Below are positions 8,237 through 48,558 of a stretch of 64,000 nucleotides of DNA, in pieces. Origin of the DNA: Candidatus Omnitrophota bacterium. Lineage in GTDB: Bacteria > Omnitrophota > Gorgyraeia > Zapsychrales > Fredricksoniimonadaceae. The translations under genes and the position numbers were made by a program. The DNA is taken from positions 272,648 to 336,647 of the forward strand of contig CAIOPG010000004.1 in NCBI GenBank assembly GCA_903860135.1, in the 5' to 3' direction. Under the pieces are notes generated by a model. The model did no database searches and was not told the origin of the DNA. It was given only the letters and a program-made list of their open reading frames with translations. How positions within the stretch are numbered: the first letter of the stretch is position 1; each line of letters begins with the position of its first letter.

Positions 8237-8237
8237 A

Positions 8238-12154: not shown

Positions 12155-12190
12155 ATTTTTTGTCCATTCTGGACATTGCTGCGGCGTTGG

Positions 12191-12538
12191 CTAAAAAGCT
12201 TTAATTTCAATTACATCACCTACGCTGGTCTCTGTTTGCTTAATGGTGCCGATAGGAAGTTCAATGGCACATGTCGCTTTCCAGAAAACAGAACTCATCT
12301 GGTTTGGTTTAATTTCTTCGACCAAACCAACAACAACGCCACGCCTATCAATAAAAACAACATCGATGGCCACTGACATAAAAAACATATGAATAGAATT
12401 GCATGATGTGATCACAAGCCCTTGACCTGGTTCAAGTGACTGCCGTCCTATTAAGCCTTTTGCTCTTGAAAATGGAGTTTTAGCTACTTCAGCGTGTTGG
12501 CTCAAACACTTATTATTCTTAAGATTTTTAATGATCAC
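12191..12538 (-). CDS. DUF192 (COG1430) family protein
   Basis: 115 aa; pattern …AKTPFSRAKGLIGRQSLEPGQGLVITSCNSIHMFFMSVAIDVVFIDRRGVV… typical of DUF192. Confidence 0.5.
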   Translation of the reverse strand: MIIKNLKNNKCLSQHAEVAKTPFSRAKGLIGRQSLEPGQGLVITSCNSIHMFFMSVAIDVVFIDRRGVVVGLVEEIKPNQMSSVFWKATCAIELPIGTIKQTETSVGDVIEIKAF

Positions 12539-14714: not shown

Positions 14715-14724
14715 AGTAGATTCT

Positions 14725-19715: not shown

Positions 19716-22181
19716 TTATTCTTCTGCCGCGTCATCTTCGCGCGCCACCACATTGGCGATAGAAGCCACCGCGTCTCCGGTCTCGAGCATCACCAGCCGC
19801 ACCCCCATGGCACTGCGACCTGTCAGACGGACATCCGCCGGATTACAACGGATCATCATGCCCTGTTTGGTCATGGTCATCAGCTCGCCATCCTCATGCA
19901 CGACAAGCACGCTGACCACCTGACCATTCTTCGCCGTGCATTTCAAGTTGATGATACCCTTGCCACCGCGCGACTGCACGCGGTAATCTTCAAACTTCGA
20001 ACGCTTCGCATACCCCAGCGAGGCAACGGTCAATAGCGTATTGCCGGTCTTATCCGCATTCTGATCAAAAACGATCATGCCAACCACGGCGTCTTTAGAC
20101 GCCAGGCTGATGCCGCGCACGCCCCTGGCCCCGCGGCCGATATCGCGCAATTGCTGTTCCTGGAAGCGCAGGGATTTGCCCAAACGCGTTGCCAAAAGCA
20201 CATCCTTGTTGCCGTCGGATATTTCAACACCGATCAACACATCATCTTTATCCAGCGTGATGCCGATGATCCCGCCCTTGCGCGGATTGCTGAAGGCGGA
20301 AAGTTTCGTCTTCTTCACAACGCCGTGTGCCGTGGCCATCAGAAGGAACTGGTCGTCCTTGAATTCCTTGACCGCGACAATGGCCGTGATGTATTCATCT
20401 GACGAAAAAGATAAAAGATTAACAATGGCCTTGCCCTTGGACTGCCGGGAAGCCACCGGGATCTCGTACACCTTGAGCCAGCGGATAACGCCCTTGTTAG
20501 AAAAGATAAGAAGATAATCCTTGGACGAGGCCACGAACAGCCTTTCCACAAAATCTTCTTCTTTGGTTGTCATGCCGGTAACACCCTTGCCGCCACGCTT
20601 CTGCTTGCGGTAAGTCTGGACGGGAATGCGCTTGACATAACCCGTATTGGAGATCGTGATTGCCATGTCTTCCTCGGCAATCAGGTCTTCCATTTCTATC
20701 TCTTCGGCTTTCCCGGCAATTTCGGTGCGGCGAGGATCGCCAAATTTCGCCTTAAGGTCAGCCAATTCTTTTTTAATGATCGCATCGACCATGGCGGCAC
20801 TGGCAAGAATGGCACGGTAACCATCGATCGCCTTGAGCAATTCGTTGTATTCCGCGTCAATTTTATCGCGTTCCAGACCTGTCAGTTTCTGCAACTGCAT
20901 TTCCAGGATCGCCTGGGCCTGGATCTCGGTGAGGCCGAACAGCCTCATCAACGATGCCTTGGCCTCGGGTGTCGACGGGGACTTACGGATCGTCTGAATG
21001 ATCTCTTCTATGTTCTTTAGGGCGATGCGCAGGCCTTCGAGGATATGCGCGCGGCGCAGGGCTTTATCAAGATCAAATTGTGTGCGTTTGCGGATAACAA
21101 TACGACGATGATCAATATAATAATCCATCAACTGCTTGAGGTTGAGCACGCGCGGATTATTGTTCACTAAAGCAAGGTTGATAATACCAAACGTGGTCTC
21201 GAGCTGGGTGTGCTTGAACAAATAATTAAGGACAATTTGCGCTTCCACATCACGCCGCAATTCAATGACGATACGAATACCGTCCTTATCCGATTCATCG
21301 CGCAAGTCCGTAATACCGTCAACGGCTTTATTCTGCACCAACGAGGCAATGCTCGACACCAGGTTGGACTTATTCACCTGATATGGGATTTCGGTGATAA
21401 TAATAAAATCTTTGCCATTCTTTTGCTGTTCAATGGCAGCTTTGGCGCGAAGATTGATCTTGCCACGGCCCGTCATGTAAGCATCCCTGATGCCCTCCTT
21501 GCCGCAAATAATCCCGGCTGTCGGGAAATCCGGGCCCTTGACAAAACGCATCAGGTCCTTGATCTCGGCTTCAGGATTTTCGATCAGATGCACAACCCCG
21601 TCGATGATTTCGCCCAGGTTGTGCGGTGGCATATTCGTAGCCATACCAACGGCGATACCGCTGGAACCATTCACCAGCAAATTCGGCATCCCCGACGGAA
21701 GGATCGTCGGCTCTTCGAGCGTTGCGTCAAAATTTGGCGCAAATTTAACGGTTTCCTTATCAATGTCTGCCAGCATACTCTCGGTGATCGACGCCATGCG
21801 GGCTTCCGTGTAACGCATCGCGGCCGCCGCATCACCGTCAACCGACCCGAAGTTACCCTGACCATCAACCAACGGATAACGCAGGGAAAACTCCTGCACC
21901 ATGCGCACCATGGTTTCATACACCGCGGAGTCGCCGTGCGGATGGTATTTACCCAACACTTCACCGACGATACGCGCACTCTTCTTATAAGACTTGTTAT
22001 GCTCCAGATGCAACTCTTTCATCGCATACAGGACCCTGCGGTGCACAGGCTTCAAGCCGTCGCGGACATCCGGCAGGGCGCGCCCCACAATAACGCTCAT
22101 GGAATACGCCAGATAAGAGGACTTCATTTCCTCTTCAATGGCAACAGGAACGATCTTTTCTTTCTTAGTGAAATCTTTCAT
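19716..22181 (-). CDS. gyrA: DNA gyrase subunit A
   Basis: 821 aa; N-terminal …[25 protein letters not shown]… QRDR region; C-terminal beta-pinwheel repeats. Confidence 0.95.
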
Positions 22182-22205
22182 CTATGAAACCTTTGTTAAA
22201 CAAGA

Positions 22206-25000
<2,795 letters not shown>

Positions 25001-26181
25001 AATTTTCTTTACGGATCACACACTTTGTGTCTTGCCCTGATAACTCAAGCTCCACTTCTGTATCCGTTATGTTTTTCAGGATATCCTGCATGTATTGTGG
25101 ATTATACCCCACCATCACTTCATTGCCGCCATAAACGATCGGCAATTCCTCACGGGACTCTCCAATATCGGGTGTTGTTTTTGTCACTATCAATTTATCT
25201 TTGAAAACTTCAAATTTTACTGCCTGATAATCAGGTATAGATAATAAATTGGCTCGACGGATAGCCGCCAGAAAATCCTGGGTGTTGATTCTAACTTTTA
25301 CAGCCGTTTCTTTGGGAATAACCTGTGAATAATTTGGAAAATCTCCTTCAATGATGCGTGTGGCAATTAAAACGCCATTGATATCAAACATCACCTGACT
25401 GGTTCCAGGAACAAACAGCACATCTCCAATATCTTTCAGATTTCTATTTATTTCAGCAACGGCTTTAATAGGTAATATAAAACTTACATCTTGTATTACA
25501 GGTTCCAGCAAAGCGCACTCCATTTTAGCCAAGCGACGACCATCGGTTGCCACTAGACGTAAAATATTTTTTGTGGCTTCCATTAATATACCATTAAGCA
25601 CATACCGTGATTCTTCATGAGAAACAGCAAACGCTGTCATACGAAACATTTCTTTTAGATCTGACTGTTTGATCTTAATGGCTTCTTTATCTTTAAATTC
25701 CGGGAATTTTGGAAATTCTTCTTTGGGCAAACCTAATAATTTAATATTGCAATGCTGACCTTCAATGTCAATTTGATTATTTTTTCGGGTATTGATTACC
25801 ACATCTCCACTGGGAAATTCACGAATAATATCGCTGAATCTTTTGGCTGGAATGGTAATAGCTCCATCCTCCATAATACTAACAGGGATCTCACAGCAAA
25901 TCCCTATATCAAGATCAGTTGTATATAAACATAATGTATCTTTTTTTGTTTCCAACAACATATTGGAAAGAATCGGCAGTGTGGCTTTTGATGAAACAAC
26001 ATTTTGAACAGTTTGGATTCCATAAAGCAGAGCTTCTTTAGTTATTTTAACCTTCATGTTATACACAACTCCTTTATTTCTCTATTTAAAAACACGTTTA
26101 GTAATAATGGTTATAGGTGCTGTGAATATTTTAATAAGTTCAAAAACTATTCAAACATAACGAGTTGTAAAATATATACAT

Positions 26182-26190
26182 TGTGGATAA
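26182..26190 (-). promoter_or_regulatory. DnaA box (TGTGGATAA = TTATCCACA on minus) in dnaN–dnaA spacer
   Basis: Perfect 9-mer consensus read from sequence. Confidence 0.5.
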
Positions 26191-26208
26191 CTTGCAACAT
26201 ACGGTGAA

Positions 26209-27561
26209 CTATTGTTTAAGAATCACCGTTAGCTTATCAATAATATACTTTATTTCACTGTTTTTACTAAGGTTTTCCTCAACTTTTTTACAGGCGTATA
26301 AAACAGTTGTATGATCTTTGCCTCCAAAAGCTTTGCCTATTTCAAGAAGAGAGTGGCGCGTTAAAGTTCGTGTTAAATACATGGCAATTTGCCGCGGAAA
26401 AACAAAAGTTTTTGTTCTTTTGGAACTTTTTAGGTCATTAATATTTAATTTGAAATGATCACAAATGATTTGTTGAACCATTTCAACACTGATAATTTTA
26501 GTTGTTTCCTGAACCATATTTTTTAATACTATTTGTGCTAACAGCATCGTGATTGGCTTTTCCTGAAGGATGGAACTTGCCACAACACGAATAAGGGCAC
26601 CTTCAAGTTCACGTATATTGGTTTTGATTTGTTCAGCAATAAAATATACAACCTCATCTGGAACATGCACATTTTCCAGTTCAAGTTTTTTACGCAAAAT
26701 GGCCACACGATTTTCAAAATCGGGCGGTTGTATATCAACTGTCAAGCCCCATAAGAAACGTGTGACAAGGCGCTCTTCCAGGTCGGAAATTTCTTTGGGA
26801 GGCCGGTCGGAACTGATAACGATCTGTTTACGGTTATCATGCATAGCGTTAAAAGTATGAAAAAATTCTTCCTGAGTTGAACGTTTTCCGGCAATAAATT
26901 GAATATCGTCAATAAGAAGGATGTCGACATTGCGGTATTTTTGTTTAAATTCATTGGTTGTTTTATGATGAATGGATTCAATTAGCTCATTGGTGAACTG
27001 TTCCGACGTTAAATAAACGCATTGGGCAACAGGATTCATGCGTAATACTTCATGCACAAGTGCTTGCATCAAATGTGTTTTTCCGAGACCAGACTGACCA
27101 TAAATGAATAAAGGATTGTAAGCTTTGGCCGGTGCATTGGCAACGGCCTGACTGGCGCGGCAGGCCATTTGATTGGATGACCCAATAACAAAATTTTCAA
27201 ACGTTAGGCGTGGATTAAGATTTGATCTGCCGGGTTTTTTTATAGAAGAAAAAGCCGGTGGTGTTGCTAAAGGGATTGCAATAGCGGGAACATGTTGTTG
27301 ATGAGCCAATGCTTCAAAAGGAACAACCCGTGTTTCGATTTGAATATTTTTTTGTGTATGTGTTTTCAGGATTTCTTGAATCGTATCAAAATAATGTTCT
27401 ACAACCCAATTTTTAAAGAATTCATCTGGGGTTATTAAAGTAAGGGTGTTTTCAGCTTCAGAAACCACATGAAAGTTTGAAAACCACGATAGGTAAGCAC
27501 TATCCCCTATTTTCTGACGAATTTCAGTTTGAGCTTCAGTCCAGACTTTAAGGGTATCCAT
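26209..27561 (-). CDS. dnaA: Chromosomal replication initiator protein DnaA
   Basis: AAA+ Walker A GQSGLGKTHL, DnaA signature, C-terminal HTH (…RQIAMYLTRTLTRHSLLEIGKAFGGKDHTTVLYACKKV…); start taken at MDTLKVW (track start 27597 is a TTG). Confidence 0.9.
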   Translation of the reverse strand: MDTLKVWTEAQTEIRQKIGDSAYLSWFSNFHVVSEAENTLTLITPDEFFKNWVVEHYFDTIQEILKTHTQKNIQIETRVVPFEALAHQQHVPAIAIPLATPPAFSSIKKPGRSNLNPRLTFENFVIGSSNQMACRASQAVANAPAKAYNPLFIYGQSGLGKTHLMQALVHEVLRMNPVAQCVYLTSEQFTNELIESIHHKTTNEFKQKYRNVDILLIDDIQFIAGKRSTQEEFFHTFNAMHDNRKQIVISSDRPPKEISDLEERLVTRFLWGLTVDIQPPDFENRVAILRKKLELENVHVPDEVVYFIAEQIKTNIRELEGALIRVVASSILQEKPITMLLAQIVLKNMVQETTKIISVEMVQQIICDHFKLNINDLKSSKRTKTFVFPRQIAMYLTRTLTRHSLLEIGKAFGGKDHTTVLYACKKVEENLSKNSEIKYIIDKLTVILKQ

Positions 27562-27597
27562 AATACCAGATATTCTTTCTATAGTGGAACATATCAA

Positions 27598-27878
27598 AAC
27601 ACATAAGTCTAATCAAATTAACAACATAGGCGTTTACTAAAAAACAATTAACAAGTTATCCACAGGTGTTAAAATCTTTACGTTGTTGTTTTTGAATATG
27701 TATCATTTAGTTTGGAAGTAGGATTATCTTTTTGCTATAAAAATCAAATTTTGGTTATTATAGCAAAGAACATTTCAATTTCAATGTCATTCTTCCTGAC
27801 CGTCTCAATTCTTGGGTTTGATAATTCAGAATACAGGCTATTGACTTCACAAGAGCGTGTGTTATAATTTGACCCATT
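27598..27878. other. Candidate oriC: AT-rich dnaA–rpmH intergenic region with a perfect DnaA box TTATCCACA at 27656-27664 and AT-rich unwinding-type tract (27700-27780)
   Basis: Position between divergently transcribed dnaA and rpmH; consensus box read directly; other boxes may be degenerate. Confidence 0.45.
27841..27868 (+). promoter_or_regulatory. Sigma70 promoter of rpmH (TTGACT-16-TATAAT)
   Basis: Near-consensus hexamers 11 nt upstream of the rpmH ATG. Confidence 0.6.
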
Positions 27879-28016
27879 ATGAAAAAAACATTAAAAACAC
27901 CCACAAAGATCAAAGGTAAAAAAACACACGGCTTCCGTACACGTATGGCGACAGCAGATGGTCGCAAGGTGTTGTCGAAAAGGCGTGCCAAAGGTCGCAA
28001 GCGTTTAGCCGTTTAA
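27879..28016 (+). CDS. rpmH: 50S ribosomal protein L34
   Basis: Manual translation [45 protein letters not shown] (45 aa); below track size cutoff. Confidence 0.9.
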
Positions 28017-28034
28017 CTGACAGCTGTCACGTTT

Positions 28035-28235
28035 ATGATCTGTTTTTTAATCAGGACCTATCAGACCGCGAGCAGGTTGTTTCTTCCTAAAGCTTGCCGT
28101 TTTTATCCGTCTTGTTCAGCATATACGTTAGAGGCTATTCAAAAATACGGCACCTGCAAAGGCCTGAGGGTGGGGTTTCTCCGTATTTTAAAATGTTCCC
28201 CATTTTCACGCGGGGGCTATGACCCGGTAAGGTGA
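28035..28235 (+). CDS. yidD: Membrane protein insertion efficiency factor YidD
   Basis: CRFYPSCSAY motif; 66 aa. Confidence 0.85.
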   Translation: MICFLIRTYQTASRLFLPKACRFYPSCSAYTLEAIQKYGTCKGLRVGFLRILKCSPFSRGGYDPVR

Positions 28236-28239
28236 TTGT

Positions 28240-29847
28240 ATGGAAAAAAGGTTTTTTCTTGCGGCTGTTTTATCATTAGGTGTTCTTTTTGGTTTTCAAT
28301 CATTTTTTGGGCCAGCGAATAAAAAAGCTCAGCCATCTGCACCTACCCCTCCTTCACTGACCTCTTTTGAAAAAAGCATTGTTCCCGATCCGTTGAACGT
28401 TACCACATCTTTAGCGGAGATTGCCAAAGACACGGCTTCTTTTAATGAAAAAAACATCACATTGGAGAACAAACATTACCAGGTTGAACTGACAAACAGG
28501 GGGGCCAATGTTTCACGGCTTATATTAAAGGAATACGCGTATTCGCTCCCTGTTAGAAACTTGGCTACCCTCGATGCGTTTGATAACCTACCCTTCGCGT
28601 TTGATTTGATTGATAAAAATAAGCTTAAAAGTACACACCAAGGTGACGGATGGTTAGTTGAAAAAGATATCACATTAAATGATAATTTTACGATCAGTAC
28701 CACTATCGTTGTAAAGAATACAGCCACAGTTCCACAAAATTTTATTTCAAAAAGCACAAATATTCTTGTGGACATGAACAGACTGGACAAAAGCAATGTC
28801 CAGTCTGATATGACTTTATTTGAATATGTATTTAAATCAGATAAAAAATTCATCCGTAAAAATAATGTTTCAAATTTTAATGAAAAGTGGAATAAACAAG
28901 AAACATTAAATATTAATTGGGTCGCTTTCAGAGATAAATATTTCGTTGTTCTTGTTCAACCCAAACAAGAAGAAATGAACTATGCAACAAACTTTATTTC
29001 TCCAAAAGAACTTGTCCTAGGCACGCAAAATGAAATAAAAACGGTTGCCCCTGGTCAAACCATCATATATGAGTATAAGATTTTCGCCGGCCCGCAAAAG
29101 TTGGATGTTCTAAAAAATGCCAATAATGGGTTTGAGAAGGTTTTAGTTTTTAGCGATTGGGGTTGGCTCGACGCCGTATCCAAAGCCATTTATTGGATGC
29201 TCGGCGCTATGCACAAGATTGTGCCCAATTGGGGTATCTGCATCATATTTATAAGTCTTTTTGTTTATGGAATTATGTACCCTTTGACTTTAAAAAGTCT
29301 TCTTTCGATGAAGAAGCTTCAAGCACTACAGCCAAAAATGAAAGAACTGCAAGAAAAATATAAAAACAACCAGGAGCGTTTGAGCAAAGAAATCATGGAG
29401 TTGTACAAGGTTAACCAGGTTAATCCTTTGGGCGGCTGTTTACCCATGATCTTGCAAATGCCCATTTTTGTTGGTTTATATCAGGTGCTCTGGCGTTCTG
29501 TTTACTTTCGTGGTGAAAGTTTTCTTTGGATTAAAGATTTATCTATGCCCGATCACACCATTAAACTTCCGTTTACTATTCCTTTTTTAGGAGAATACGT
29601 AAATATTTTGCCTATCCTCATGATTATCATTATGGGAATTCAGCAAAAGTTGAATCTGCAATCGAATAGCACGGGAACAGAAGAGCAGGTTTCACAGCAA
29701 AAAATGATGGCGGTCATGCTCCCTATTCTTATTGGGTTCATCTTCTATAATATGGCCAGCGGTCTAAATCTTTATTTTGTGGTGTTTTATATATTGTCCA
29801 CACTGAGCCAATGGCACATTTCAAAAGACGTGAAAGCCATTGTTTAG
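28240..29847 (+). CDS. yidC: Membrane protein insertase YidC
   Basis: 535 aa; N-terminal TM + periplasmic domain, C-terminal 60KD_IMP core (…PLGGCLPMILQMPIFVGLYQVL…). Confidence 0.9.
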   Translation: MEKRFFLAAVLSLGVLFGFQSFFGPANKKAQPSAPTPPSLTSFEKSIVPDPLNVTTSLAEIAKDTASFNEKNITLENKHYQVELTNRGANVSRLILKEYAYSLPVRNLATLDAFDNLPFAFDLIDKNKLKSTHQGDGWLVEKDITLNDNFTISTTIVVKNTATVPQNFISKSTNILVDMNRLDKSNVQSDMTLFEYVFKSDKKFIRKNNVSNFNEKWNKQETLNINWVAFRDKYFVVLVQPKQEEMNYATNFISPKELVLGTQNEIKTVAPGQTIIYEYKIFAGPQKLDVLKNANNGFEKVLVFSDWGWLDAVSKAIYWMLGAMHKIVPNWGICIIFISLFVYGIMYPLTLKSLLSMKKLQALQPKMKELQEKYKNNQERLSKEIMELYKVNQVNPLGGCLPMILQMPIFVGLYQVLWRSVYFRGESFLWIKDLSMPDHTIKLPFTIPFLGEYVNILPILMIIIMGIQQKLNLQSNSTGTEEQVSQQKMMAVMLPILIGFIFYNMASGLNLYFVVFYILSTLSQWHISKDVKAIV

Positions 29848-30034
29848 TATGGCTGTAATGTCCAAGTCCGTTGAGTTTGAAGGCAAGACATTAGAAATCG
29901 CTATAAAAAAAGCGGAAGATATGTTCAATGTTTCACGTGAAACATTGGATATTAAGGTTGTTTGTGAAGAACAGCGCGGACTGTTTGGTATGGAAGGCGC
30001 TAAATTAGCCAAAATCAAGGCCAAGCGTAAATAA
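29840..30034 (+). CDS. Jag_N-domain-only protein (KhpB N-terminal domain homolog, 64 aa)
   Basis: SKSVEFEGKTLEIAIKKAEDMFNVSRETLDIKVV…GLFGMEGAKLAKIKA matches Jag N-terminal domain; no KH/R3H part follows. Confidence 0.5.
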   Translation: MFSMAVMSKSVEFEGKTLEIAIKKAEDMFNVSRETLDIKVVCEEQRGLFGMEGAKLAKIKAKRK

Positions 30035-30065
30035 TATTTTTTAGATTTTTTACAAACAGTTAAAT

Positions 30066-30081
30066 AGTTTCACGTGGAACA
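30066..30081. promoter_or_regulatory. parS-like site AGTTTCACGTGGAACA (14/16 match to TGTTTCACGTGAAACA)
   Basis: Read from sequence ~160 nt upstream of parA. Confidence 0.55.
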
Positions 30082-30242
30082 CCACTCTAAGCACGTGTTA
30101 TTAATAAGAATATAATATAGACAAAACAGCGCGTTTCTCAAGTACAGGATCACTGAAAGCAAGTTGAGAATAAAATACATGTTTATGTGTGCGGCAACGT
30201 CGGGAAATAAAGGCTAATACACAATCCGGGGTTAAGGCGCGT

Positions 30243-31028
30243 ATGGCTAAAATCATTACGATTTGCAATCAAAAAGGTGGCACAGGAAAGACAACAACCG
30301 CGGTTAATTTATCAGCGGCCTTGGCTGACTGCGGTAAAAAGGTTTTACTTGTAGATATGGACCCGCAGGGTAATGCTACCAGCGGGGTGGGTATCAACAA
30401 GAACGAGATAAAACACTCCGCTTACGAAGTTCTACTACACAAAATACAAGCCCCCCAGGCTATTCTTAAAACAGCGAACACCAAGCTAGATGTTATTCCT
30501 TGCAACATTCATCTTACAGGTGCTGAAATTGAGCTTGTTGGGGTATTATCGAGGGAAAATCGGCTGAAGAAGGCCCTTATTGAAGTGCGGTCGCAGTATG
30601 ATTATATTTTATTAGATTCACCCCCATCGTTAGGTTTACTCACGTTAAATGCATTGGTCGCTGCGGATTCGATCATTATCCCTATTCAGTGTGAGTTTTA
30701 TGCCTTGGAAGGCGTTTCACAGTTGCTCAATACTATTGGTCTTGTCCGAGATGGTCTTAACTCAAATCTTGAAATCGAGGGTGTGCTATTAACCATGGCA
30801 GACATTAGAACAAATTTAAGTGTTGAGGTTATTAATGAAATCCGAAATTATTTTAAAGAAAAAGTTTATCAGGCAATCATCCCGCGCAACATTCGTTTAA
30901 GTGAAGCACCAAGCCACGGTAAGCCGATCAATGCGTACGATCCGTCTTCTATCGGAGCCAAGAAATATGCTGAATTGGCAGAAGAAGTGATACGAAGAAA
31001 TAATCCGACGGCGATATTGTCCAAATAG
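30243..31028 (+). CDS. parA: Chromosome partitioning ATPase ParA/Soj
   Basis: MAKIITICNQKGGTGKTTTAVNL deviant Walker A; start taken at MAKI (track 30189). Confidence 0.9.
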   Translation: MAKIITICNQKGGTGKTTTAVNLSAALADCGKKVLLVDMDPQGNATSGVGINKNEIKHSAYEVLLHKIQAPQAILKTANTKLDVIPCNIHLTGAEIELVGVLSRENRLKKALIEVRSQYDYILLDSPPSLGLLTLNALVAADSIIIPIQCEFYALEGVSQLLNTIGLVRDGLNSNLEIEGVLLTMADIRTNLSVEVINEIRNYFKEKVYQAIIPRNIRLSEAPSHGKPINAYDPSSIGAKKYAELAEEVIRRNNPTAILSK

Positions 31029-31077
31029 CACTTGTACAAATGTCCAATAAATACGTCCAATCTGATAAGGTGAGAAT

Positions 31078-31926
31078 ATGGCATTAGGTCGTGGTCTTTC
31101 TGCGTTAATCGCCGAAAGAAAAGAAGTTCCGCCAGCGTCTACAGGTCAGTTGCACGTTGATATTGCACTGATCAATGACAATCGGTTTCAACCGCGCCAG
31201 ACGTATGATATTGCTAAAATTGATGAATTGGCGGCTTCTATTAAGGATCAAGGGTTGTTGCAGCCCTTGGTGGTTAGGCCGATTGATCATGGGTTTGAGG
31301 TGGTGGCTGGTGAGCGTCGTTTGAAGGCGGCGCGCAAGCTAGGCTTGTTGCAGGTGCCGGTGATCGTGCGTGACGTTACCGATCAGGAGGCACTGGTTTT
31401 AGCTTTGGTTGAAAATCTTCAGCGTGAGGAGTTAAATCCCATTGAAGAGGCGGAAAGTTTTCGGCGTCTGGTAGATGAGTTTCAGCAGTCCCAAGAAGAC
31501 GTGGCGCGCCTGGTCAGCAAAGATCGTGCCACCGTAGCCAATCTTTTGCGTTTATTGAAGTTGCCCAAAGACATACAGCGAGCCGTGTCCGACGGACGTA
31601 TTTCCGCGGGTCATGCGCGGGCTATCCTTGCCGTAGATTCAGCGGAACGTCAGCGCGAAATTTTCACCCGCATCCTTGACGAAAAACTTTCGGTGCGCGA
31701 AGCCGAAGCGTTGACAAAAGCCGATGCAGCGCAAGTGATTGCGAAAGATAAGCATAAGTTAAAGCCTTTGAAAGACCCTGAAATAGCAGCCCTTGAAACG
31801 GAATTGCGTGGCATCTTTGGAGTCAAAGTTCAGGTGTGCAATGCGCGCGGCAATAAGGGGAAAGTGGTGATAGAGTATTATTCGCTCGATGATCTTGACC
31901 GTATATTAGAGGTGGTGCGTCGATGA
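31078..31926 (+). CDS. parB: Chromosome partitioning protein ParB/Spo0J
   Basis: ParB box …GLLQPLVVRP…EVVAGERRLKAA…, HTH, C-terminal dimerisation domain. Confidence 0.9.
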   Translation: MALGRGLSALIAERKEVPPASTGQLHVDIALINDNRFQPRQTYDIAKIDELAASIKDQGLLQPLVVRPIDHGFEVVAGERRLKAARKLGLLQVPVIVRDVTDQEALVLALVENLQREELNPIEEAESFRRLVDEFQQSQEDVARLVSKDRATVANLLRLLKLPKDIQRAVSDGRISAGHARAILAVDSAERQREIFTRILDEKLSVREAEALTKADAAQVIAKDKHKLKPLKDPEIAALETELRGIFGVKVQVCNARGNKGKVVIEYYSLDDLDRILEVVRR

Positions 31927-41435: not shown

Positions 41436-42740
41436 ATGGGACTTTTTGAAGAAGAGCAGGGGTCGAACAAGCCGTTGTCGGTGCGCATGCGCCCGGCATC
41501 TCTCGATGAGATCGTCGGGCAGGAGCATATCCTGGGCCCGGGAAAATTGCTGACACGCGCGGTTGACGCGGATCGGGTATCGTCGATCATCCTTTATGGG
41601 CCGCCGGGTGTCGGGAAGACGACGTTGGCTTTATGTATCAGCAAGAAAACGGAAGCACAGTTTGAAAGTGTGAATGCCGTGGCATCGAATGTGGAGGAAT
41701 TGCGCCGGATCATCGCCGGGGCCAAAAATCGTCTGGCTACAACCGGGCGCAGGACTATTCTTTTCATCGACGAGATCCATCGCTTCAACAAGGCCCAGCA
41801 GGATGTGTTGATGCCTGATGTGGAAAACGGTATCCTTGTCCTGATCGGTGCCACGACCATGAATCCTTTCTTTTCCCTTGTTACGCCGCTCTTGTCGCGA
41901 TCGTTGGTGTTTGAATTAAAACCGTTAGGGCCGCTGTCGTTGATGGTTCTTTTGGAGCGGGCTTTGTTGGATGCCGTGCGGGGGTTGGGGCGGTTGCCTG
42001 TCAAGGCGGATAAGGCGGCGTTGGAATTTTTGGCAGACATTTCCGACGGGGATGCCCGGCGGGCGCTCAATGCGCTGGAGATCGGGTGCCTGAGTGTGCC
42101 CAAGAATGAAGCCGGCGAGATTGTTTTTGATCTGGCCGCGGCACAGGAGTCGATCCAGAAAAAGCAGGTGCAGTATGACGGGGACGGCGATGTGCATTAT
42201 GACACGATTTCAGCGTTCATTAAATCCATGCGCGGGTCTGACCCGGATGCCGCCTTGTACTGGCTGGCCAAGATGATCTACGCCGGCGAAGACCCCCGGT
42301 TCATTGCCCGGCGCATTGTGATCTGTGCCGCTGAAGATGTGGGCAATGCTGATCCGCAGGCGCTGGTCCTGGCGAACACCGCCGCCCAGGCGTCGGAGTT
42401 CATTGGTTTCCCTGAAGCCCGGATCATCCTGGCGCAAGCCGTGACCTATGTGGCCTGCGCCCCCAAGTCCAATGCCGCTTATTTGGGGATCGACAGGGCC
42501 CTGGAGGATGTGCGCAACAAAAAAGCCGGTAATGTCCCGTCACACCTTAAAGATGCGTCTTATGCCGGCGCGAAAAAACTCGGCCACGGCCAGGGCTACA
42601 AATACGCCCACGATTTCCCGGATCATTACGTGCCGCAGGAGTATATGCCCTTTAAAGCCACCTATTACGAACCAACGGATCTCGGCTACGAAAAAAAGAT
42701 CCGCGACCGCCTGGAAGTGCTGAGAAAAAGGGCGGGGTGA
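41436..42740 (+). CDS. rarA: Replication-associated recombination protein A (RarA/MgsA, AAA+ ATPase)
   Basis: MRPASLDEIVGQEHILG…, Walker A GPPGVGKTT, MgsA C-terminal domains; start at MGLFEEE with GAGGG RBS (track ORF starts 41289). Confidence 0.85.
   Translation: MGLFEEEQGSNKPLSVRMRPASLDEIVGQEHILGPGKLLTRAVDADRVSSIILYGPPGVGKTTLALCISKKTEAQFESVNAVASNVEELRRIIAGAKNRLATTGRRTILFIDEIHRFNKAQQDVLMPDVENGILVLIGATTMNPFFSLVTPLLSRSLVFELKPLGPLSLMVLLERALLDAVRGLGRLPVKADKAALEFLADISDGDARRALNALEIGCLSVPKNEAGEIVFDLAAAQESIQKKQVQYDGDGDVHYDTISAFIKSMRGSDPDAALYWLAKMIYAGEDPRFIARRIVICAAEDVGNADPQALVLANTAAQASEFIGFPEARIILAQAVTYVACAPKSNAAYLGIDRALEDVRNKKAGNVPSHLKDASYAGAKKLGHGQGYKYAHDFPDHYVPQEYMPFKATYYEPTDLGYEKKIRDRLEVLRKRAG
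42671..42740 (+). repeat. Direct repeat copy 1 (last ~70 nt of rarA); near-identical (~93%) to 43792..43861
   Basis: Manual alignment ACCAACGGA(T/C)CTCGGCTACGAAAAAAAGATCCG(C/T)GACCGCCTGGAAG(T/C)GCTGAG(A/G)AA(A/G)(A/C)GGGCGGGGT(G/A)(A/G). Confidence 0.6.
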
Positions 42741-42742
42741 AC

Positions 42743-42781
42743 TGTGTTAATAACATATGCGTTGAAAATGTTATTAACACA
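42743..42781. promoter_or_regulatory. Perfect 14-bp inverted repeat TGTGTTAATAACAT-N11-ATGTTATTAACACA immediately upstream of fic start
   Basis: Read from sequence; candidate operator / recombination site at the island boundary. Confidence 0.4.
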
Positions 42782-42796
42782 TGTTATCCTTCAAGC

Positions 42797-43768
42797 ATGA
42801 AGCCGCCATTTGATATTACCCTTAAAATTTTGAATCTTGCCACCGAGATCAGTGCCCTGGTTGGCCGGCTGGAAGGGGCGCGATTGAAGGTTCCTCTCGT
42901 TGATCTGCGGCGCCAGATTGATGCGTCCTCTGTTCATTCCAGCTGTGTGATCGAAGGTAATCGTTTGACGCTGGATCAGGCGACAGATGTGATCAGCGGT
43001 AAACGTGTTGTAGGTTCCCCCCAAGATATCCTGGAGATCAAGAATGCGCATGAGCTTTACGCGATGATTGAGGATATTGATCCCCGCCGTGGCAAAGACC
43101 TTTTGCGGGCGCATGGGGTGCTGATGAAAGGCCTTGGGGTGAGCGCAGGTCAATACCGACAGACCGGCGTTGTGGTCAGAAGTCAGCGGGTTGTGGTGCA
43201 TACAGCCCCGCCATACAGGAAAGTCCCGGAATTGATGGAGCAACTTTTTGAGTTCATCAATCACCCAGAGGGAATACATGCTCTGATCGCGTCCAGCATT
43301 TTTCATTATGAGTTTGAATTTATTCATCCGTTCGAGGACGGGAACGGCAGGATGGGCCGTTTCTGGCAAACCTTGATGCTGCGGCATGCCCAGCCATGTT
43401 TCAGTCTTGTGCCGATCGAGAGCACCATCAAGGATCATCAGCAAGCCTATTATGAGGCGATCGCGCGTTCGAGCAAGGAGGGGAAATCCACGGTTTTCAT
43501 TGAATTCATGCTCGGGGTTATTTTTGAAGCGGTGCAGGGCCTTGAGAAGCTTGCATCAGGTAAGGCAAAGCCTTCGGAGCGGATCGCGTTCATGATGAAA
43601 CATTGCCCCAGGCAGTTTACCCGCAAAGAGTATATTCAGCTTATTGGCGATATCGAGGCGCATACAGCCTCCAGGGATTTGAGCGAGGCGGTTGAACAGG
43701 GGCTGATCGTCATGAACAGCTCCCGCGCCAGGGCTGTGTATAGGAAAGTGTTAGATAGGAAGAAATAA
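42797..43768 (+). CDS. fic: Fic/DOC family protein (class II, intrinsic inhibitory SxxxEG motif; C-terminal wHTH)
   Basis: Canonical Fic active-site motif HPFEDGNGRMGRF; N-terminal SSCVIEGN inhibitory motif; start at MKPPFD (track GTG 42737 overlaps rarA stop). Confidence 0.85.
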   Translation: MKPPFDITLKILNLATEISALVGRLEGARLKVPLVDLRRQIDASSVHSSCVIEGNRLTLDQATDVISGKRVVGSPQDILEIKNAHELYAMIEDIDPRRGKDLLRAHGVLMKGLGVSAGQYRQTGVVVRSQRVVVHTAPPYRKVPELMEQLFEFINHPEGIHALIASSIFHYEFEFIHPFEDGNGRMGRFWQTLMLRHAQPCFSLVPIESTIKDHQQAYYEAIARSSKEGKSTVFIEFMLGVIFEAVQGLEKLASGKAKPSERIAFMMKHCPRQFTRKEYIQLIGDIEAHTASRDLSEAVEQGLIVMNSSRARAVYRKVLDRKK

Positions 43769-43770
43769 AG

Positions 43771-43790
43771 ACAGTGTGTCCTGACTTTTT
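43771..43790 (+). repeat. Post-gene motif copy A: ACAGTGTGTCCTGACTTTTT (3 nt after fic stop)
   Basis: Same ~20-nt motif recurs at 44219-44237 and 45177-45196, each directly after a stop codon. Confidence 0.5.
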
Positions 43791-43791
43791 A

Positions 43792-43861
43792 ACCAACGGA
43801 CCTCGGCTACGAAAAAAAGATCCGTGACCGCCTGGAAGCGCTGAGGAAGCGGGCGGGGTAG
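43792..43861 (+). repeat. Direct repeat copy 2: duplicated rarA 3'-terminal fragment (encodes …PTDLGYEKKIRDRLEALRKRAG*) downstream of fic
   Basis: See copy 1; indicates insertion of fic cassette into the 3' end of rarA with target-end duplication. Confidence 0.6.
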
Positions 43862-43914
43862 GTCTCGCGGAACAACAACTTGTCAAAGCCGGCGAAGCCT
43901 GCCATAATTTTAAT

Positions 43915-44214
43915 ATGACAACACAACAAAAAATCCTTCAACAATTTGATACGCACGAAGCTGACATCCGGTCTTTCGGTGTCAAACGCATCGGCCTTTT
44001 TGGTTCTTTTGCCCGGGGGCAGGAGAATACCCGGAGCGATCTCGACGTTCTTGTTGAATTTAATCGGGGGCAAAAGACGTTTGATCATTTCATGGATTCA
44101 AAGTTTTTCTTGCAGAAACTTTTTGGCAAGAAAATAGACCTTGTGCTCAAAGACTCTTTGAAGCCGTCCCTGCGGCAAAGAATTTTGAAGGAAGTGATTT
44201 GTGCGGGATTATAG
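43915..44214 (+). CDS. Nucleotidyltransferase (MNT/MntA-like antitoxin-type, 99 aa)
   Basis: GLFGSFARGQENTRSDLDVLVEF = GSx9-13DxD minimal nucleotidyltransferase motif; no HEPN partner adjacent. Confidence 0.75.
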   Translation: MTTQQKILQQFDTHEADIRSFGVKRIGLFGSFARGQENTRSDLDVLVEFNRGQKTFDHFMDSKFFLQKLFGKKIDLVLKDSLKPSLRQRILKEVICAGL

Positions 44215-44218
44215 AAAA

Positions 44219-44237
44219 AACAGTGTGTCCCGATTTT
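44219..44237 (+). repeat. Post-gene motif copy B: ACAGTGTGTCCCGATTTTT (after MNT stop)
   Basis: See copy A. Confidence 0.5.
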
Positions 44238-44310
44238 TCCGATTTCTTAAATATGCATGTAGGGTCAGGTTTTCAACCTGACCATTTCTAATGTAATTGG
44301 AATAAAACAT

Positions 44311-45168
44311 ATGCCCCAACAAGCTATGCCGGAAACAAAAATTGCGATTTTCAGAAGGAAAGAGATCCGCAAGGCTATTCATAACGATGAGTGGTGGTTT
44401 GTGATCGTGGATGTGATCGCGGCATTGACAGATTCTGTTCAACCGGAGGGTTATATCAAGGATATGCGTCGTCGTGATTCGGAATTATCTCAAGGGTGGG
44501 GGCAAATTGCCACCCCCCTTTCTATTAAGACTCCTGGTGGTTTGCAAAGACTGAACTGCGCCAATACGGAAGGTGTTTTTCGGATCATCCAGTCGATCCC
44601 TTCTGCCAAGGCTGAGCCTTTTAAGAAATGGCTGGCGAAGGTGGGGTATGAGCGTATTCAGGAGATTGAGAATCCGGAATTAGGCACTAGGCGTACTCGG
44701 GCATTGTATAAGGCTAAAGGGTATTCGGATGACTGGATTGAAAAGCGGATGCGCGGGATCACTATTCGGGAAGAATTGACTGATCAGTGGAAAAAGCACG
44801 GCGTCAAAGGGGCCCGCGAATATGAGATCCTGACGGCGGAAATATCCCGGGCAACTTTTGGTCTGACGCCTGATAAATACAAGAAATTGAAAAGCCTTAA
44901 ACGAGAGAACCTGCGCGATCATATGACGGACCTTGAGTTGATCTTTTCCATGCTTGGCGAGGCATCAACGACGCAGATCACGAAGGTAGAGCACCCGGAA
45001 GGTTTTATTGCCAACAAGGCCGTGGCCGTTCGCGGTGGCAGTGTTGCGGGTATCGCCAGGAAGAAGCTTGAACAGGAAACGGGGCAGAAGGTTGTCAGTA
45101 AGATCAGCTATGTCCAGGTTCCGCAAAAGAAACTAATATCTAAGGTTTCCGTGTCAAAGCCTGCGTGA
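44311..45168 (+). CDS. Bro-N domain protein, DinD (DNA-damage-inducible protein D)-like
   Basis: N-terminal Bro-N pattern (KIAIFRRKEIRKAIHNDEWWFVIVDVIAALTD…RIIQSIPSAKAEPFKKWLAKV); C-terminal part resembles DinD family. Confidence 0.6.
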   Translation: MPQQAMPETKIAIFRRKEIRKAIHNDEWWFVIVDVIAALTDSVQPEGYIKDMRRRDSELSQGWGQIATPLSIKTPGGLQRLNCANTEGVFRIIQSIPSAKAEPFKKWLAKVGYERIQEIENPELGTRRTRALYKAKGYSDDWIEKRMRGITIREELTDQWKKHGVKGAREYEILTAEISRATFGLTPDKYKKLKSLKRENLRDHMTDLELIFSMLGEASTTQITKVEHPEGFIANKAVAVRGGSVAGIARKKLEQETGQKVVSKISYVQVPQKKLISKVSVSKPA

Positions 45169-45176
45169 AGAAGTAA

Positions 45177-45196
45177 AACCGTGTGTCCCGATTTTT
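45177..45196 (+). repeat. Post-gene motif copy C: ACCGTGTGTCCCGATTTTTT (after DinD-like stop)
   Basis: See copy A. Confidence 0.5.
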
Positions 45197-45516
45197 TCTA
45201 CATCTTACTTTTCAGATCCTGGGGGAAATTGTTTCAAGAAGTTTCCAGTACGCCGTTGAAGATAGAATAGTTTATTTGACATATTTGCCAGTGCATTCAT
45301 ATCTAATAGAAGCATACAATTTAGTATCCTTTCATGCAGTATTATTATGTTCCCATCATTTACCGCAGGGGCGGGTTCTAAACCCGCCCTTTATGGTTAA
45401 CGCCTCGTGTTTGCCCGAGTTCAATGATTTCAAGGAAATTCTGCTATCGAAAAGGGATGGTTGATGATATTATAGGACGGTTTTTGAAGGTTTTTTACTT
45501 GTTATAGAAGGTATGT

Positions 45517-46077
45517 GTGTTGATTCCAACCAAAGATGAATTACGGCAGTTGATGCTTGGCCGCATTAAGGCACAAAAGGAGGCAGTCGCTTTATTCAAG
45601 AGCCAGGTCATTTGTGAGAAGGTTGTGGATTTGCCGGTTTTCAGGAGTGCACGGACGATTTTATGTTACGCGTCCTTTGGTGGCGAAGTGGATTCTTTTG
45701 CCCTGATGCAAAAGGCCCTGGACCAGAAGAAACGCGTGGCGTTGCCGCTGGTTAGGAAAGAAGATAAACGCATTATTGCCATGTTGATAAATTCCCTTAA
45801 CGGGCTTAAGCCGGGCGCTTACGGCATACCAACACCTGCGGATATCGCAGGGAATGCCGTGGCACCTGAAGAGCTCGACCTAGTCGTTGTGCCCGGAGTG
45901 GCGTATGATCGCCTGAATAACCGTCTGGGCCGCGGCGCGGGATATTATGACAGATTTCTTTCCGCATTGCCTGCTGCAACGCCGACCATCGGCCTCGCGT
46001 ATGATATCCAGATGGTGGATGTCTTGCCAAGGATCGAAGCGCATGACCGTCCGGTTTCGCTAGTTATCACCAATTAA
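45517..46077 (+). CDS. 5-formyltetrahydrofolate cyclo-ligase (MTHFS) family protein
   Basis: …LVVVPGVAYDRLNNRLGRGAGYYDRFL… conserved G-x-G-x-G-YYD motif. Confidence 0.7.
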   Translation: MLIPTKDELRQLMLGRIKAQKEAVALFKSQVICEKVVDLPVFRSARTILCYASFGGEVDSFALMQKALDQKKRVALPLVRKEDKRIIAMLINSLNGLKPGAYGIPTPADIAGNAVAPEELDLVVVPGVAYDRLNNRLGRGAGYYDRFLSALPAATPTIGLAYDIQMVDVLPRIEAHDRPVSLVITN

Positions 46078-46213
46078 CATCATCACGAAGCGCCCGGATA
46101 TTTCCGGGAGACACATGAAGAACAGCTTGCGCGCAACGCATCCGCTTTGAGGGTGTCGCCGCCATGCTGGATCAAACCAACCGCGTTGCACGCGATAAAG
46201 AAGGAGTTATTGT

Positions 46214-47785
46214 ATGGGCGAGAATGTGTTATTGAATATCCTGGTTTTTCTGGCCGTGGGCGGCGGGGCTTTTGCCGGAGGTTATTTTTTGAGCCGTTTT
46301 TTCAAGGGCCAGCAGTTTGCCAAGGTTGAGCAGGAAGCATCCACGATCCGCGATATGGCGCGCCGCGAAGCGGAAACGTACAAGAAAGAATCCGAGCTTT
46401 ACGCCAAAGATACGCTGTTAAAACTGCGGCAGGAATTTGAGCAGGAAAGCAAGCAGCGCCGCGAAGAACTTTCCACCACCGAGCGCCGTCTTTTGCAGAA
46501 GGAAGAAAACGTCGAAAAGCGCCTGGACCTCCTGGACAAGAAGGAAAAGGACCAGACGACCCGCCTCGATACCCTTAAGCAGAAAGAAACTGAAAACACG
46601 TTAAAGGCGGATGAGCTCACGAAGCTGATCCAGCAGGAGAAAGATACGCTTTTCCGCATTTCGAATTTGAGCCGCGATGAAGCCAAAAACATGCTGTTGG
46701 CGCGCGTGGATGAAGAGCTGGCCCATGAGAAGGCGGTGCGTATCCGTCAGGTCGATGAGGAGATCAAGGAGAGCGCGGACAAGAAGGCCCGCGAGCTCAT
46801 TTCGATCGCCATGCAGCGCTGTGCGTCTGATCATGCGGCCGAAACCACGATCAGCGTGGTGCAGCTGCCGTCAGATGAAATGAAAGGCCGCATCATCGGC
46901 CGTGAAGGGCGCAATATCCGCGCCCTGGAACAGGCTACCGGCGTAGATATTATTATCGACGATACGCCCGAAGCGGTGACCATTTCCGGTTTTGATATGG
47001 TGCGCCGCGAGATCGCGCGCATTGCCCTTGAACAGCTTATTTCTGACGGACGCATTCATCCGGGACGCATTGAAGAGGTGGTTGAGAAGGCCAAGAAGAC
47101 GCTCGATCAGAAGATCAAGGAAGAGGGCGAGCAGGCCGTATTTGAACTGGGTATCCACAACATGCACCCTGAACTCGTGAAGCTCATCGGCCGCCTCAAG
47201 TACCGCACGAGTTTTGGCCAGAACGCCTTGCAGCATACAAAGGAAGTGGCACGCCTCATGGGTGTCATGGCGTATCAGCTGGGCATTGATCCGCAGCAGG
47301 CCAAGCGCGCCGGTATCCTGCACGATATTGGTAAGGTTGTTTCAACCGAAGCCGAGGAGGGCACGCACGCGGTTGTCGGGGCGCGCCTCGCACGGAAATT
47401 TGGCGAGGTTGAGCTGGTGGCGCGCGCGGTTGAGTCGCACCACAATGAGGTTGAGGTAGCATCGGTATTTGGCGTGCTGGTGTGTGTGGCCGATACGGTG
47501 AGCGCGTCACGTCCGGGCGCCCGTGCGGAATCGCTTGAAACTTATGTCAAGCGCCTTGAAGGGCTTGAGAAGATCGCGTATTCGTTCAAGGGTATCGAGA
47601 AGGCCTTTGCCTTGCAGGCGGGCCGCGAGATCCGCGTCATGGTTGATCCGGCCAAGATGAACGACGATGAAGCCGTTGTCCTTTCGCGTGATATCAAAAA
47701 GAAAATCGAGGCCGAGATGGAATATCCCGGCCAGATCAAGATCCTGGTTGTCCGTGAAACACGCGCCATGGAGTATGCCAAGTAA
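46214..47785 (+). CDS. rny: Ribonuclease Y
   Basis: N-terminal TM, coiled-coil, KH domain (GRIIGREGRNIRALE), HD domain (ILHDIGK…). Confidence 0.9.
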   Translation: MGENVLLNILVFLAVGGGAFAGGYFLSRFFKGQQFAKVEQEASTIRDMARREAETYKKESELYAKDTLLKLRQEFEQESKQRREELSTTERRLLQKEENVEKRLDLLDKKEKDQTTRLDTLKQKETENTLKADELTKLIQQEKDTLFRISNLSRDEAKNMLLARVDEELAHEKAVRIRQVDEEIKESADKKARELISIAMQRCASDHAAETTISVVQLPSDEMKGRIIGREGRNIRALEQATGVDIIIDDTPEAVTISGFDMVRREIARIALEQLISDGRIHPGRIEEVVEKAKKTLDQKIKEEGEQAVFELGIHNMHPELVKLIGRLKYRTSFGQNALQHTKEVARLMGVMAYQLGIDPQQAKRAGILHDIGKVVSTEAEEGTHAVVGARLARKFGEVELVARAVESHHNEVEVASVFGVLVCVADTVSASRPGARAESLETYVKRLEGLEKIAYSFKGIEKAFALQAGREIRVMVDPAKMNDDEAVVLSRDIKKKIEAEMEYPGQIKILVVRETRAMEYAK

Positions 47786-48558
47786 TGAAGGTCTTATTCC
47801 TGGGCGATATTGTCGGGAATCCCGGGCGGGAAGTTTTCGCCAAACATGTGCCGGCCATGCGCCGTAACGGCGAGGTGGATTTTGTGATCGCCAATGCCGA
47901 GAATGCGGCCGGTGGTTCCGGTATTACCGAGACGGTGGCGCGCGAACTCTTTTCGTTCGGCTGTGATGTGATCACGCTTGGGGATCATGTGTGGGACAAG
48001 CGCGAGGTGTATCCGTATTTAAATAGCGCCCCTCATGTGGTGCGGCCTGCGAATTTTGCTTCCGAAGCGCCGGGCCGCGGGATGTGTGTGGTGGATGTCA
48101 ATGGCACGCGGGTGGCGGTGATCACGCTCATGGGGCGTACGTTCATGAAGTTTCTGGTGAATTGCCCGTTCCGGGCGCTGGATGTCCTTCTGGGCGACCT
48201 GACGGGAGCCAGGGTGGTTGTGGTTGACATGCACGCCGAAGCGACCAGTGAAAAAGTGGCCATGGGTTGGTATGCCGACAGCAGGGTCAGCGCGGTCTTG
48301 GGGACGCATACGCACATTCAAACGGCCGATGAAAAGATCCTGCCCGGCGGGACGGCATATATAACGGATGCCGGCATGACCGGACCGTATGATTCTGTGA
48401 TTGGCCAAATCAAAGAGCGCATTGTTGCGCGCTACTTGACTGGGCTTCCGAATAAATTCGAAGTGGCCCCGGGCAAGGCCACGCTGTGCGGGGTGGTGGT
48501 TGACATTGATGAGACCACCGGTCGTGCGCGATCGATCGTGCGTGTTCAAAAAGATTGA
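47785..48558 (+). CDS. YmdB-like metallophosphoesterase (TIGR00282 family)
   Basis: MKVLFLGDIVGNPGREV…ANAENAAGGSGIT…; conserved rny–ymdB gene pair. Confidence 0.8.
   Translation: MKVLFLGDIVGNPGREVFAKHVPAMRRNGEVDFVIANAENAAGGSGITETVARELFSFGCDVITLGDHVWDKREVYPYLNSAPHVVRPANFASEAPGRGMCVVDVNGTRVAVITLMGRTFMKFLVNCPFRALDVLLGDLTGARVVVVDMHAEATSEKVAMGWYADSRVSAVLGTHTHIQTADEKILPGGTAYITDAGMTGPYDSVIGQIKERIVARYLTGLPNKFEVAPGKATLCGVVVDIDETTGRARSIVRVQKD

Follow-up and report, generated by a model that had tools for sequence, protein, structure and literature searches.

Integrative and conjugative elements (ICE), integrative and mobilizable elements (IME) and cis-mobilizable elements (CIME) that occupy the 3′ ends of protein genes are flanked by direct repeats, the upstream copy of which completes the target gene. 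The attC sites of integrons are imperfect inverted repeats of 57–141 nt that fold as hairpins, and the IntI integrase has an attI site adjacent to it. For orphan immunity arrays in type VI secretion system (T6SS) clusters of Vibrio, an upstream homology anchor combined with an illegitimate joint has been proposed (Kirchberger et al. 2017, PMC5361080), and C-terminal displacement at rhs genes is credited to Jackson et al. 2009, as cited in PMC5361080. Here we analyse a 64,000-nt stretch of contig CAIOPG010000004.1 from a Candidatus Omnitrophota bacterium, hereafter the window, in which a fic gene lies between the core gene rarA and a second, diverged copy of the rarA 3′ end. Our preferred reading, which we give an even chance of being right, is that this repeat is the joint at which two chromosomal lineages were recombined, one rarA tail displacing the other.

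The rarA locus partly resembles each of several described arrangements. Like an integrase-borne element, it has direct repeats with an upstream copy that completes rarA and a single-copy empty site in relatives; the fic unit alone lies between the repeats, with no recombinase inside, and the target is not used recurrently. No integrase domain was found in the window, and the motif shared by the accessory gene ends is 22–30 nt long and has no consistent fold, which sets the locus apart from integrons and clusters of attC sites lacking integron-associated integrases (CALIN). Transposons of the DDE and HUH types fit no better: the motif has no inverted copy, the duplication is 69 nt long and diverged, and no transposase was found. 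As in C-terminal displacement, a stub precedes further accessory genes (those for a nucleotidyltransferase and a Bro-N protein) and diverges from the live copy as an allele would; serial stubs are missing, there being one stub and no significant rarA-tail similarity in the other spacers.

Results

Two diverged rarA ends flank a fic unit

The repeat search returned one direct-repeat family, with two 69-nt copies at 42670–42738 and 43791–43859 that match at 63 of 69 positions (91%; 63 of 71 with the stop codons included) at a spacing of 1121 nt. The duplication of the rarA terminus after fic, which the initial annotation had placed at 42671–42740 and 43792–43861 with ~93% identity, is real. The second copy begins 22 nt past the fic stop codon, and the 1051 nt between the copies are all accounted for by a self-contained fic unit. 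In an independent Logan assembly of run ERR4195066 (L002), 5916 nt that span both junctions are 100% identical to the window, and the gene order recurs in an ENA contig of a third sample (ERZ1426828); therefore, the tail–fic–tail structure does not stem from an assembly artefact. Look-ups of the exact Fic, RarA, nucleotidyltransferase and Bro-N proteins brought back only the arrangement found in the window.

The downstream copy contains no ATG, GTG or TTG and has an in-frame TAA directly upstream, so that it cannot be translated. The earlier description of it as an orphan RarA C-terminal remnant holds in that it is the coding sequence of a former functional rarA end, but with no start codon it is a stub that yields no protein. 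Read in frame, it would encode PTDLGYEKKIRDRLEALRKRAG followed by a stop, and the live copy ends in …LEVLRKRAG. The 22 residues of the stub peptide are also those in which RarA P0122, encoded at locus L099 of another strain, ends (…LEALRKRAG).

Five of the six differences between the repeat copies are synonymous, the sixth being a Val/Ala exchange, and the stop is kept through a double change, TGA in the live copy against TAG in the stub. For random changes with the same transition/transversion mix, the probability of five or more synonymous changes among six is ~0.017. The changes private to the stub, three or four in number, are all synonymous. These mostly synonymous differences and the kept stop indicate that both copies evolved as live rarA ends under coding constraint. 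The copies are thus two functional rarA alleles that were joined, rather than a fresh duplication that has since decayed.

Relatives carry a single rarA end

The nearest RarA relatives are 97% identical to the protein of the window. At L099, where P0122 is encoded, a single-tail rarA stands directly before the nucleotidyltransferase, Bro-N, cyclo-ligase and rny genes, and fic is absent. Positions 1552–5952 of L099 align with window positions 43793–48199 at 96.8% identity, and the sequence 3′ of the L099 rarA stop codon corresponds to that 3′ of the stub. This arrangement, together with the shared tail peptide, indicates that the stub was once the live end of a rarA located directly before the nucleotidyltransferase gene.

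A gap of 74–274 nt separates rarA from the cyclo-ligase gene in the closest species. The gap is 121 nt in the closer lineage of P0125 (RarA 84% identical, eight contigs), and L102, from this lineage, aligns to the window up to 42701 and then again from 45433. Therefore, ~2.7 kb (42741–45432) are specific to the species of the window. The search for empty sites that the initial annotation had proposed thus gave one tail copy without fic at L099 and rarA directly before the cyclo-ligase gene in sister species. The converse case, a duplication with no gene in between, was not seen among 80 rarA loci of Omnitrophota, Verrucomicrobiota and Planctomycetota, and at none of these loci did tblastn with the last 40 RarA residues detect another rarA C-terminal fragment in the 6 kb downstream. 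Insertion into the rarA 3′ end with reconstitution of the target is consistent with the empty sites and with the complete live rarA; that the insertion was site-specific, as first suggested, is not borne out, with no recombinase found, no recurrent stub at the 80 loci and no obvious identical crossover core in the two copies, whose differences are allelic and mostly synonymous.

More distantly related Omnitrophota have gaps of 1–5 kb between rarA and the cyclo-ligase gene, which were considered as a general insertion hotspot and rejected, as most hold a recurring pair of open reading frames (ORFs) of ~217 and ~145 aa that are probably conserved genes. In species-representative genomes, RarA matched only Candidatus Omnitrophota and neighbouring phyla, with a best identity of 75%.

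The two sides of the locus differ in ancestry

Identity between the window and L099 is 91.9% over rarA and the end of pheT, with the differences evenly spread. The stub and the L099 tail mismatch at 7 of 67 nt (~90% identity; P ~0.006 against the downstream rate), and from the stub stop codon onward identity is ~97%. This identity jump between the flanks indicates that the two halves of the locus have different histories. A coincidence of the jump with the fic junction was considered and rejected, as the jump starts at the stop codon of the stub and not at the start of the stub; as such, it gives no pointer to which side is the insert. Relative to L100, a locus of a sister strain, rarA and the fic unit have nearly the same identity (90.7% and 90.6%), as if the two had travelled together. 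Judging from these comparisons, rarA and fic could have been imported into an L099-like chromosome, or a block of stub, nucleotidyltransferase, Bro-N and core genes could equally have been imported into a rarA–fic chromosome. Both routes yield the same product, in which the fic unit's end meets position −69 of the other lineage's rarA at a single novel joint. As for fic being an inserted cassette, fic plus one tail copy is indeed absent from L099, but fic is one member of a strain-variable array and the direction of the event is ambiguous.

A RarA variant on a 1895-nt ENA contig (P0124) has its first ~130 residues from another lineage, the rest being 100% identical to the RarA of the window, Val-type tail included. 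It represents either recombination within rarA or a chimeric assembly.

Table 1 Features from rarA to the cyclo-ligase gene (window coordinates)
Feature	Position	Strand	Evidence
rarA/mgsA, intact, 434 aa, stop TGA	41436..42740	+	Pfam MgsA_C PF12002 (E=2.6e-72), AAA_assoc_2 PF16193, RuvB_N, AAA; length equals homologues P0122, P0123
DR-L, upstream repeat copy, functional last 23 codons of rarA (…LEVLRKRAG)	42670..42738	+	Repeat search
Perfect 14-nt inverted repeat TGTGTTAATAACAT-N11-ATGTTATTAACACA, left end of fic unit	42743..42781	+	Repeat search
fic, 323 aa	42797..43768	+	Pfam PF02661 (E=3.4e-19); weak NCBIfam match to Fic adenylyltransferase
Motif copy 1 (AAGACAGTGTGTCCTGACTTTTT), right end of fic unit	43768..43790	+	Repeat/motif search; homology to L100
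DR-R, downstream repeat copy, untranslated rarA tail stub, stop TAG	43791..43861	+	Repeat search; comparison with RarA P0122
Promoter-like site TTGTCA-17-CATAAT of nucleotidyltransferase gene	43880..43908	+	Directly 3′ of live rarA stop in L099
MntA-like nucleotidyltransferase, 99 aa	43915..44214	+	Pfam NTP_transf_2 (2.7e-14); NCBIfam MntA_antitoxin (5.2e-12, under family cutoff)
Motif copy 2 (AAAACAGTGTGTCCCGATTTTTC)	44217..44239	+	Repeat/motif search
Bro-N/DinD-like protein, 285 aa	44311..45168	+	Pfam Bro-N (1.1e-11)
Motif copy 3 (AAAACCGTGTGTCCCGATTTTTT)	45175..45197	+	Repeat/motif search
AT-rich island-specific spacer, GC ~0.39	45198..45432	+	L102 alignment resumes at 45433
5-formyltetrahydrofolate cyclo-ligase gene, conserved right-hand neighbour of rarA	45517..46077	+	Pfam 5-FTHF_cyc-lig (5.5e-40); synteny in ~50 loci

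The fic unit is self-contained

Fic belongs to the Fic/Doc family by its PF02661 domain and by the active-site motif HxFx(D/E)GN(G/K)R, which reads HPFEDGNGRMGR in the translation; its N-terminus carries an SxxxEG motif (SCVIEG) of the inhibitory-helix type. Upstream of the gene, the inverted repeat at 42743–42781 overlaps a promoter-like site, TTGAAA-17-TATCCT, at 42762–42790. This inverted repeat is kept upstream of fic homologues at other loci, both in the sister strain (L084/L100) and at the unrelated loci L085 and L090, and together with the promoter-like site it most likely forms the fic operator and promoter.

Homology between the window and L100 in the fic unit is confined to 42745–43787. 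The unit lies behind higBA, with no stub, in L100 and at unrelated chromosomal positions in L085 and L090. No relevant flanking repeats were found around the fic homologues at L085, L089 and L090, and none of the fic homologues examined has a linked integrase with a rarA fragment. At L090, which belongs to another Omnitrophota genome, a different repeat of 43–78 nt (GGGGCTTTTAGCTCTAAGCTC…) separates the fic homologue and its neighbours (7013–7096, 8978–9051 and 10332–10457), and an rve-type transposase gene lies directly downstream of the fic homologue.

A strain-variable accessory array occupies the locus

The order pheS–pheT–rarA–cyclo-ligase–rny–ymdB is kept in ~50 loci, and the segment 42741–45432 is a strain-variable patch of toxin–antitoxin and defence-type genes between the conserved rarA and cyclo-ligase genes. 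Array content differs among three strains: in the sister strain (L100/L084/L096) the order is rarA–higB–higA–motif–spacer–fic–Mrr–SLFN. Across the three, the cargo comprises Fic, an MntA-like nucleotidyltransferase without HepT, HigBA, an Mrr-type nuclease, a Schlafen (SLFN)/AlbA_2 protein and a Bro-N/DinD-like protein, all of which are typical mobile cargo. The MntA-like gene has no HepT/HEPN partner and is an orphan antitoxin-type gene. A blastn comparison of the island with plasmids and phages gave weak coding similarity to the fic and Bro-N genes and nothing more.

Homologues of the Bro-N/DinD-like protein with 75–88% identity occur in several phyla. The closest of them (82–88%), from related Omnitrophota, are located in small elements composed of HTH_3, Bro-N and large-serine-recombinase genes (L109, 4666–8354; L110, 5197–8160). 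The L109 element, which also has a weak tyrosine-integrase match, adjoins gltX–pilZ–ymdB, in the same chromosomal neighbourhood as the window. Truncation of Bro-N at the motif was considered and ruled out, the protein being full length relative to its homologues.

Positions 2242–5998 of L100 and the whole contig L096 imply the path rarA–higB–higA–motif–fic–Mrr–SLFN–higA–motif–fic, in which a 3.7-kb higA…SLFN unit is joined head to tail, as either a tandem duplication or a circular form. The SLFN–higA junction keeps the left half of the motif only and yields a solo higA without higB.

The accessory genes share a motif at their 3′ ends

Each accessory gene of the array is followed, 3′ of its stop codon, by a conserved motif of 22–30 nt (GAAATAAAAAC / AGTGTGTCCCGATTTTT). 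Its 22-nt form, AAAACAGTGTGTCCCGATTTTT, occurs three times in the 64 kb, all within the array, against 0.03 occurrences expected. In the three strains, the motif lies 0–17 nt past the stop codons of four unrelated genes, namely fic, the mntA-like gene (where it begins 2 nt past the stop) and the Bro-N gene in the window and L099, and higA in L100/L084; in L100 it is positioned at 2580–2602 and ~3915–3935. The sample is small, with four cassettes in three strains of one species. The motif was not found beside fic or Bro-N homologues at other loci, and therefore belongs to the locus or to a mechanism acting there and not to the genes. The stub begins 3 nt past the end of the fic-unit homology to L100, at the end of the motif T-run. 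Local alignment of the other array spacers revealed no significant degenerate rarA-tail remnant after the other motif copies.

No dyad symmetry is present in the motif, and the repeat and motif search found no inverted copy. RNA folds of the four cassette 3′ ends have no shared or stable structure (z-scores −1.3 to +0.5), and Rfam gave no match in 42500–45600 at E<=1. These properties are compatible with either a recombination site or a functional 3′ element. A scan of JGI metagenomes gave six matches to the motif, two of which are the sister strain (SESG/SESB); the other four were set aside as unrelated eukaryote-like inverted-repeat elements. In two eukaryote-like contigs (L093, 2470–2760; L094, 885–1172), CAGTGTGTCC forms the terminal inverted repeats of a ~290-nt element. 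One match came from a scan of viral contigs and was discarded, being consistent with chance and in an unrelated phage-like context.

No recombinase gene was found in the window

No Pfam match to an integrase, resolvase, recombinase, rve domain or other transposase was found among the large ORFs of the window or in the precomputed Pfam calls for 32.8–53.8 kb, a negative that is not absolute given six large ORFs of the window without any Pfam match. To this extent the Pfam scans agree with the initial annotation, in which no integrase was visible.

The window also carries dnaA, dnaN, gyrB, gyrA and parAB, and the accessory patch lies ~15 kb from dnaA. The replication-origin neighbourhood at 19716–31926 has gyrA, gyrB, dnaN and dnaA on the minus strand, followed by yidC and parA/parB. 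Further upstream, 1240–17414 holds a Tad/Flp-type pilus cluster with two T2SSF genes, a T2SSE ATPase, a secretin with a TonB_C domain and RcpC/CpaB; three large ORFs in this region (929, 485 and 595 aa) have no Pfam match.

Discussion

The repeat, the fic-less L099 locus, the allelic, coding-type divergence of the two rarA ends, the mosaic ancestry of the flanks and the variability of the array are all observed directly. From them we infer a route of recombination by tail displacement. One lineage would have contributed rarA with its own complete tail and the self-contained fic unit (operator/promoter, fic and 3′ motif), and a second lineage a rarA tail directly before the nucleotidyltransferase, Bro-N and downstream core genes, as in L099. 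At the single novel junction, the end of the fic unit would have been joined to position −69 of the second rarA, leaving one rarA end functional and pushing the other downstream as a dead stub. Such a product would likely arise if homologous recombination in flanking core genes made one connection and an illegitimate or short-homology joint made the other, as in homology-facilitated illegitimate recombination; equivalently, a small circle with tail and fic could have entered by a Campbell-type single crossover. An element-encoded integrase is not required for tail displacement.

Several points weigh against tail displacement. Among the available sequences, no donor or recipient strain exactly matches either half of the locus, and the array holds a single stub, while repeated displacement should leave several. 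The joint is located exactly at the end of the motif common to all cassettes, which a random illegitimate joint would not predict. The differences between the repeat copies are unevenly spread, with 1 in the first 34 nt and 7 in the remaining 37 nt (Fisher p ~0.06), and this distribution may hint at crossover or gene conversion inside the repeat. Natural transformation or another route of DNA uptake is not known for this organism.

The position of the joint relates directly to a rival account, which we regard as doubtful but worth entertaining, in which the motif (GAAATAAAAAC/AGTGTGTCCCGATTTTT) is the site for a recombinase encoded elsewhere, cassettes dock at the rarA 3′ end, and the fic cassette took up a rarA tail by aberrant excision and was then re-integrated. 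The confinement of the motif to the array in numbers far above the 0.03 expected, its place just past the stops of four unrelated genes and its absence beside fic and Bro-N homologues elsewhere all speak for a trans-acting, site-specific system of this kind, as do the motif that closes the fic unit common to the window and L100, with the stub starting 3 nt later, and the head-to-tail 3.7-kb unit of L100/L096, whose junction retains the left half of the motif only. However, conservative site-specific recombination does not itself make a 69-nt duplication, and the breakpoints differ within the motif, that of the window following the T-run and that of L100 following AAAAC. The window yielded no recombinase, the motif is devoid of dyad symmetry, stable fold or Rfam match, the sole genuine-looking metagenome matches in the one scan are two sister-strain contigs, and four cassettes in three strains of one species are a small basis. 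That the motif is more specifically recognised by an undescribed system of cassette recombination that acts in trans in Omnitrophota, integron-like, docked at the rarA stop codon and dispensing with attC hairpins, would be an improbable outcome on this sequence evidence. If it were true, the rarA stub and the head-to-tail unit of L100/L096 would be by-products of the activity of that system.

The textbook geometry of direct repeats, a gene-completing upstream copy and an empty site in a relative recalls the relic of an integrase-borne island, in which an attP containing the rarA 3′ end integrated into rarA and the integrase and most cargo were later lost, leaving fic between attL and attR in the manner of a CIME. 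Integrative elements do visit the region, as the recombinase-bearing Bro-N element at L109 indicates. Even so, we hold a relic of this kind to be unlikely: the 1051 nt between the repeats are fully occupied by a fic unit that has the same ends in L100, where it has no repeats, with neither an integrase pseudogene nor a spare ORF, none of the other rarA loci (n=80) has an att-like stub, and no link between a fic homologue and an integrase with a rarA fragment was seen. Far less probable still is an in situ event without foreign DNA, such as a long target duplication on insertion, that duplicated the rarA end in tandem and was followed by divergence. In its favour, the repeat flanks the insert exactly, with no extra bases beyond the fic unit. 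But a decaying stub should gain mostly non-synonymous changes and lose its stop codon, opposite to what is observed, and neither the identity of the stub peptide to that of a live allele (P0122) nor the different ancestry of the flanks fits such an event. To our knowledge, no transposition target duplication is near 69 nt, which disfavours it further.

In kind, the event at rarA is ordinary, a recombination scar in a variable accessory patch of a poorly known phylum. Read as the product of tail displacement, the stub is a small molecular fossil which records that accessory toxin-type genes beside a core gene were swapped as blocks between diverged lineages of an uncultivated phylum, with the end of the core gene carried along. 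The locus would then be a clean case in which a tail was displaced away from any polymorphic-toxin locus, and a reminder that a 3′-end duplication alone does not prove an integrase. Only the shared cassette-end motif may lead to something new, either as a site of cassette recombination or as a dedicated 3′ element.

In comparison with elements of the ICE, IME and CIME types, the locus has the flanking direct repeats, the gene-completing upstream copy and the empty site in a relative. It differs from them in its insert, a single gene unit of 1 kb with no integrase found inside or close by, in the lack of recurrent use of the site and in the allelic differences that run throughout the repeats. 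Similarly, integron arrays and CALIN share with it the stacking of genes in the same orientation at a fixed point, a shared sequence 3′ of each gene and strain-variable content; if fic is the insert, the most recent member is also the one nearest the fixed point. In contrast to integrons, there is no IntI, the shared sequence of 22–30 nt has no attC fold, at least the fic and nucleotidyltransferase units have promoter-like sites of their own, and integron insertion leaves no 69-nt duplicated stub.

Tail displacement at rarA would be analogous to the C-terminal displacement that builds arrays of orphan modules in rhs, contact-dependent inhibition (CDI) and T6SS loci. In these arrays too, homology is anchored in a conserved upstream gene, the incoming DNA supplies a 3′ end of its own, and the resident 3′ end is shifted back together with the downstream genes, through homologous recombination and an illegitimate joint as proposed and with no integrase, giving rise to arrays that vary among strains. 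Their orphan immunity genes have a counterpart in the orphan antitoxin-type genes described here, the mntA-like gene without hepT and the solo higA of L096. Unlike the rhs, CDI and T6SS anchors, rarA is a housekeeping AAA+ gene and not a polymorphic toxin gene, its displaced tail carries no variable toxin domain, one stub is present, and the cargo consists of unrelated stand-alone genes with their own promoters.

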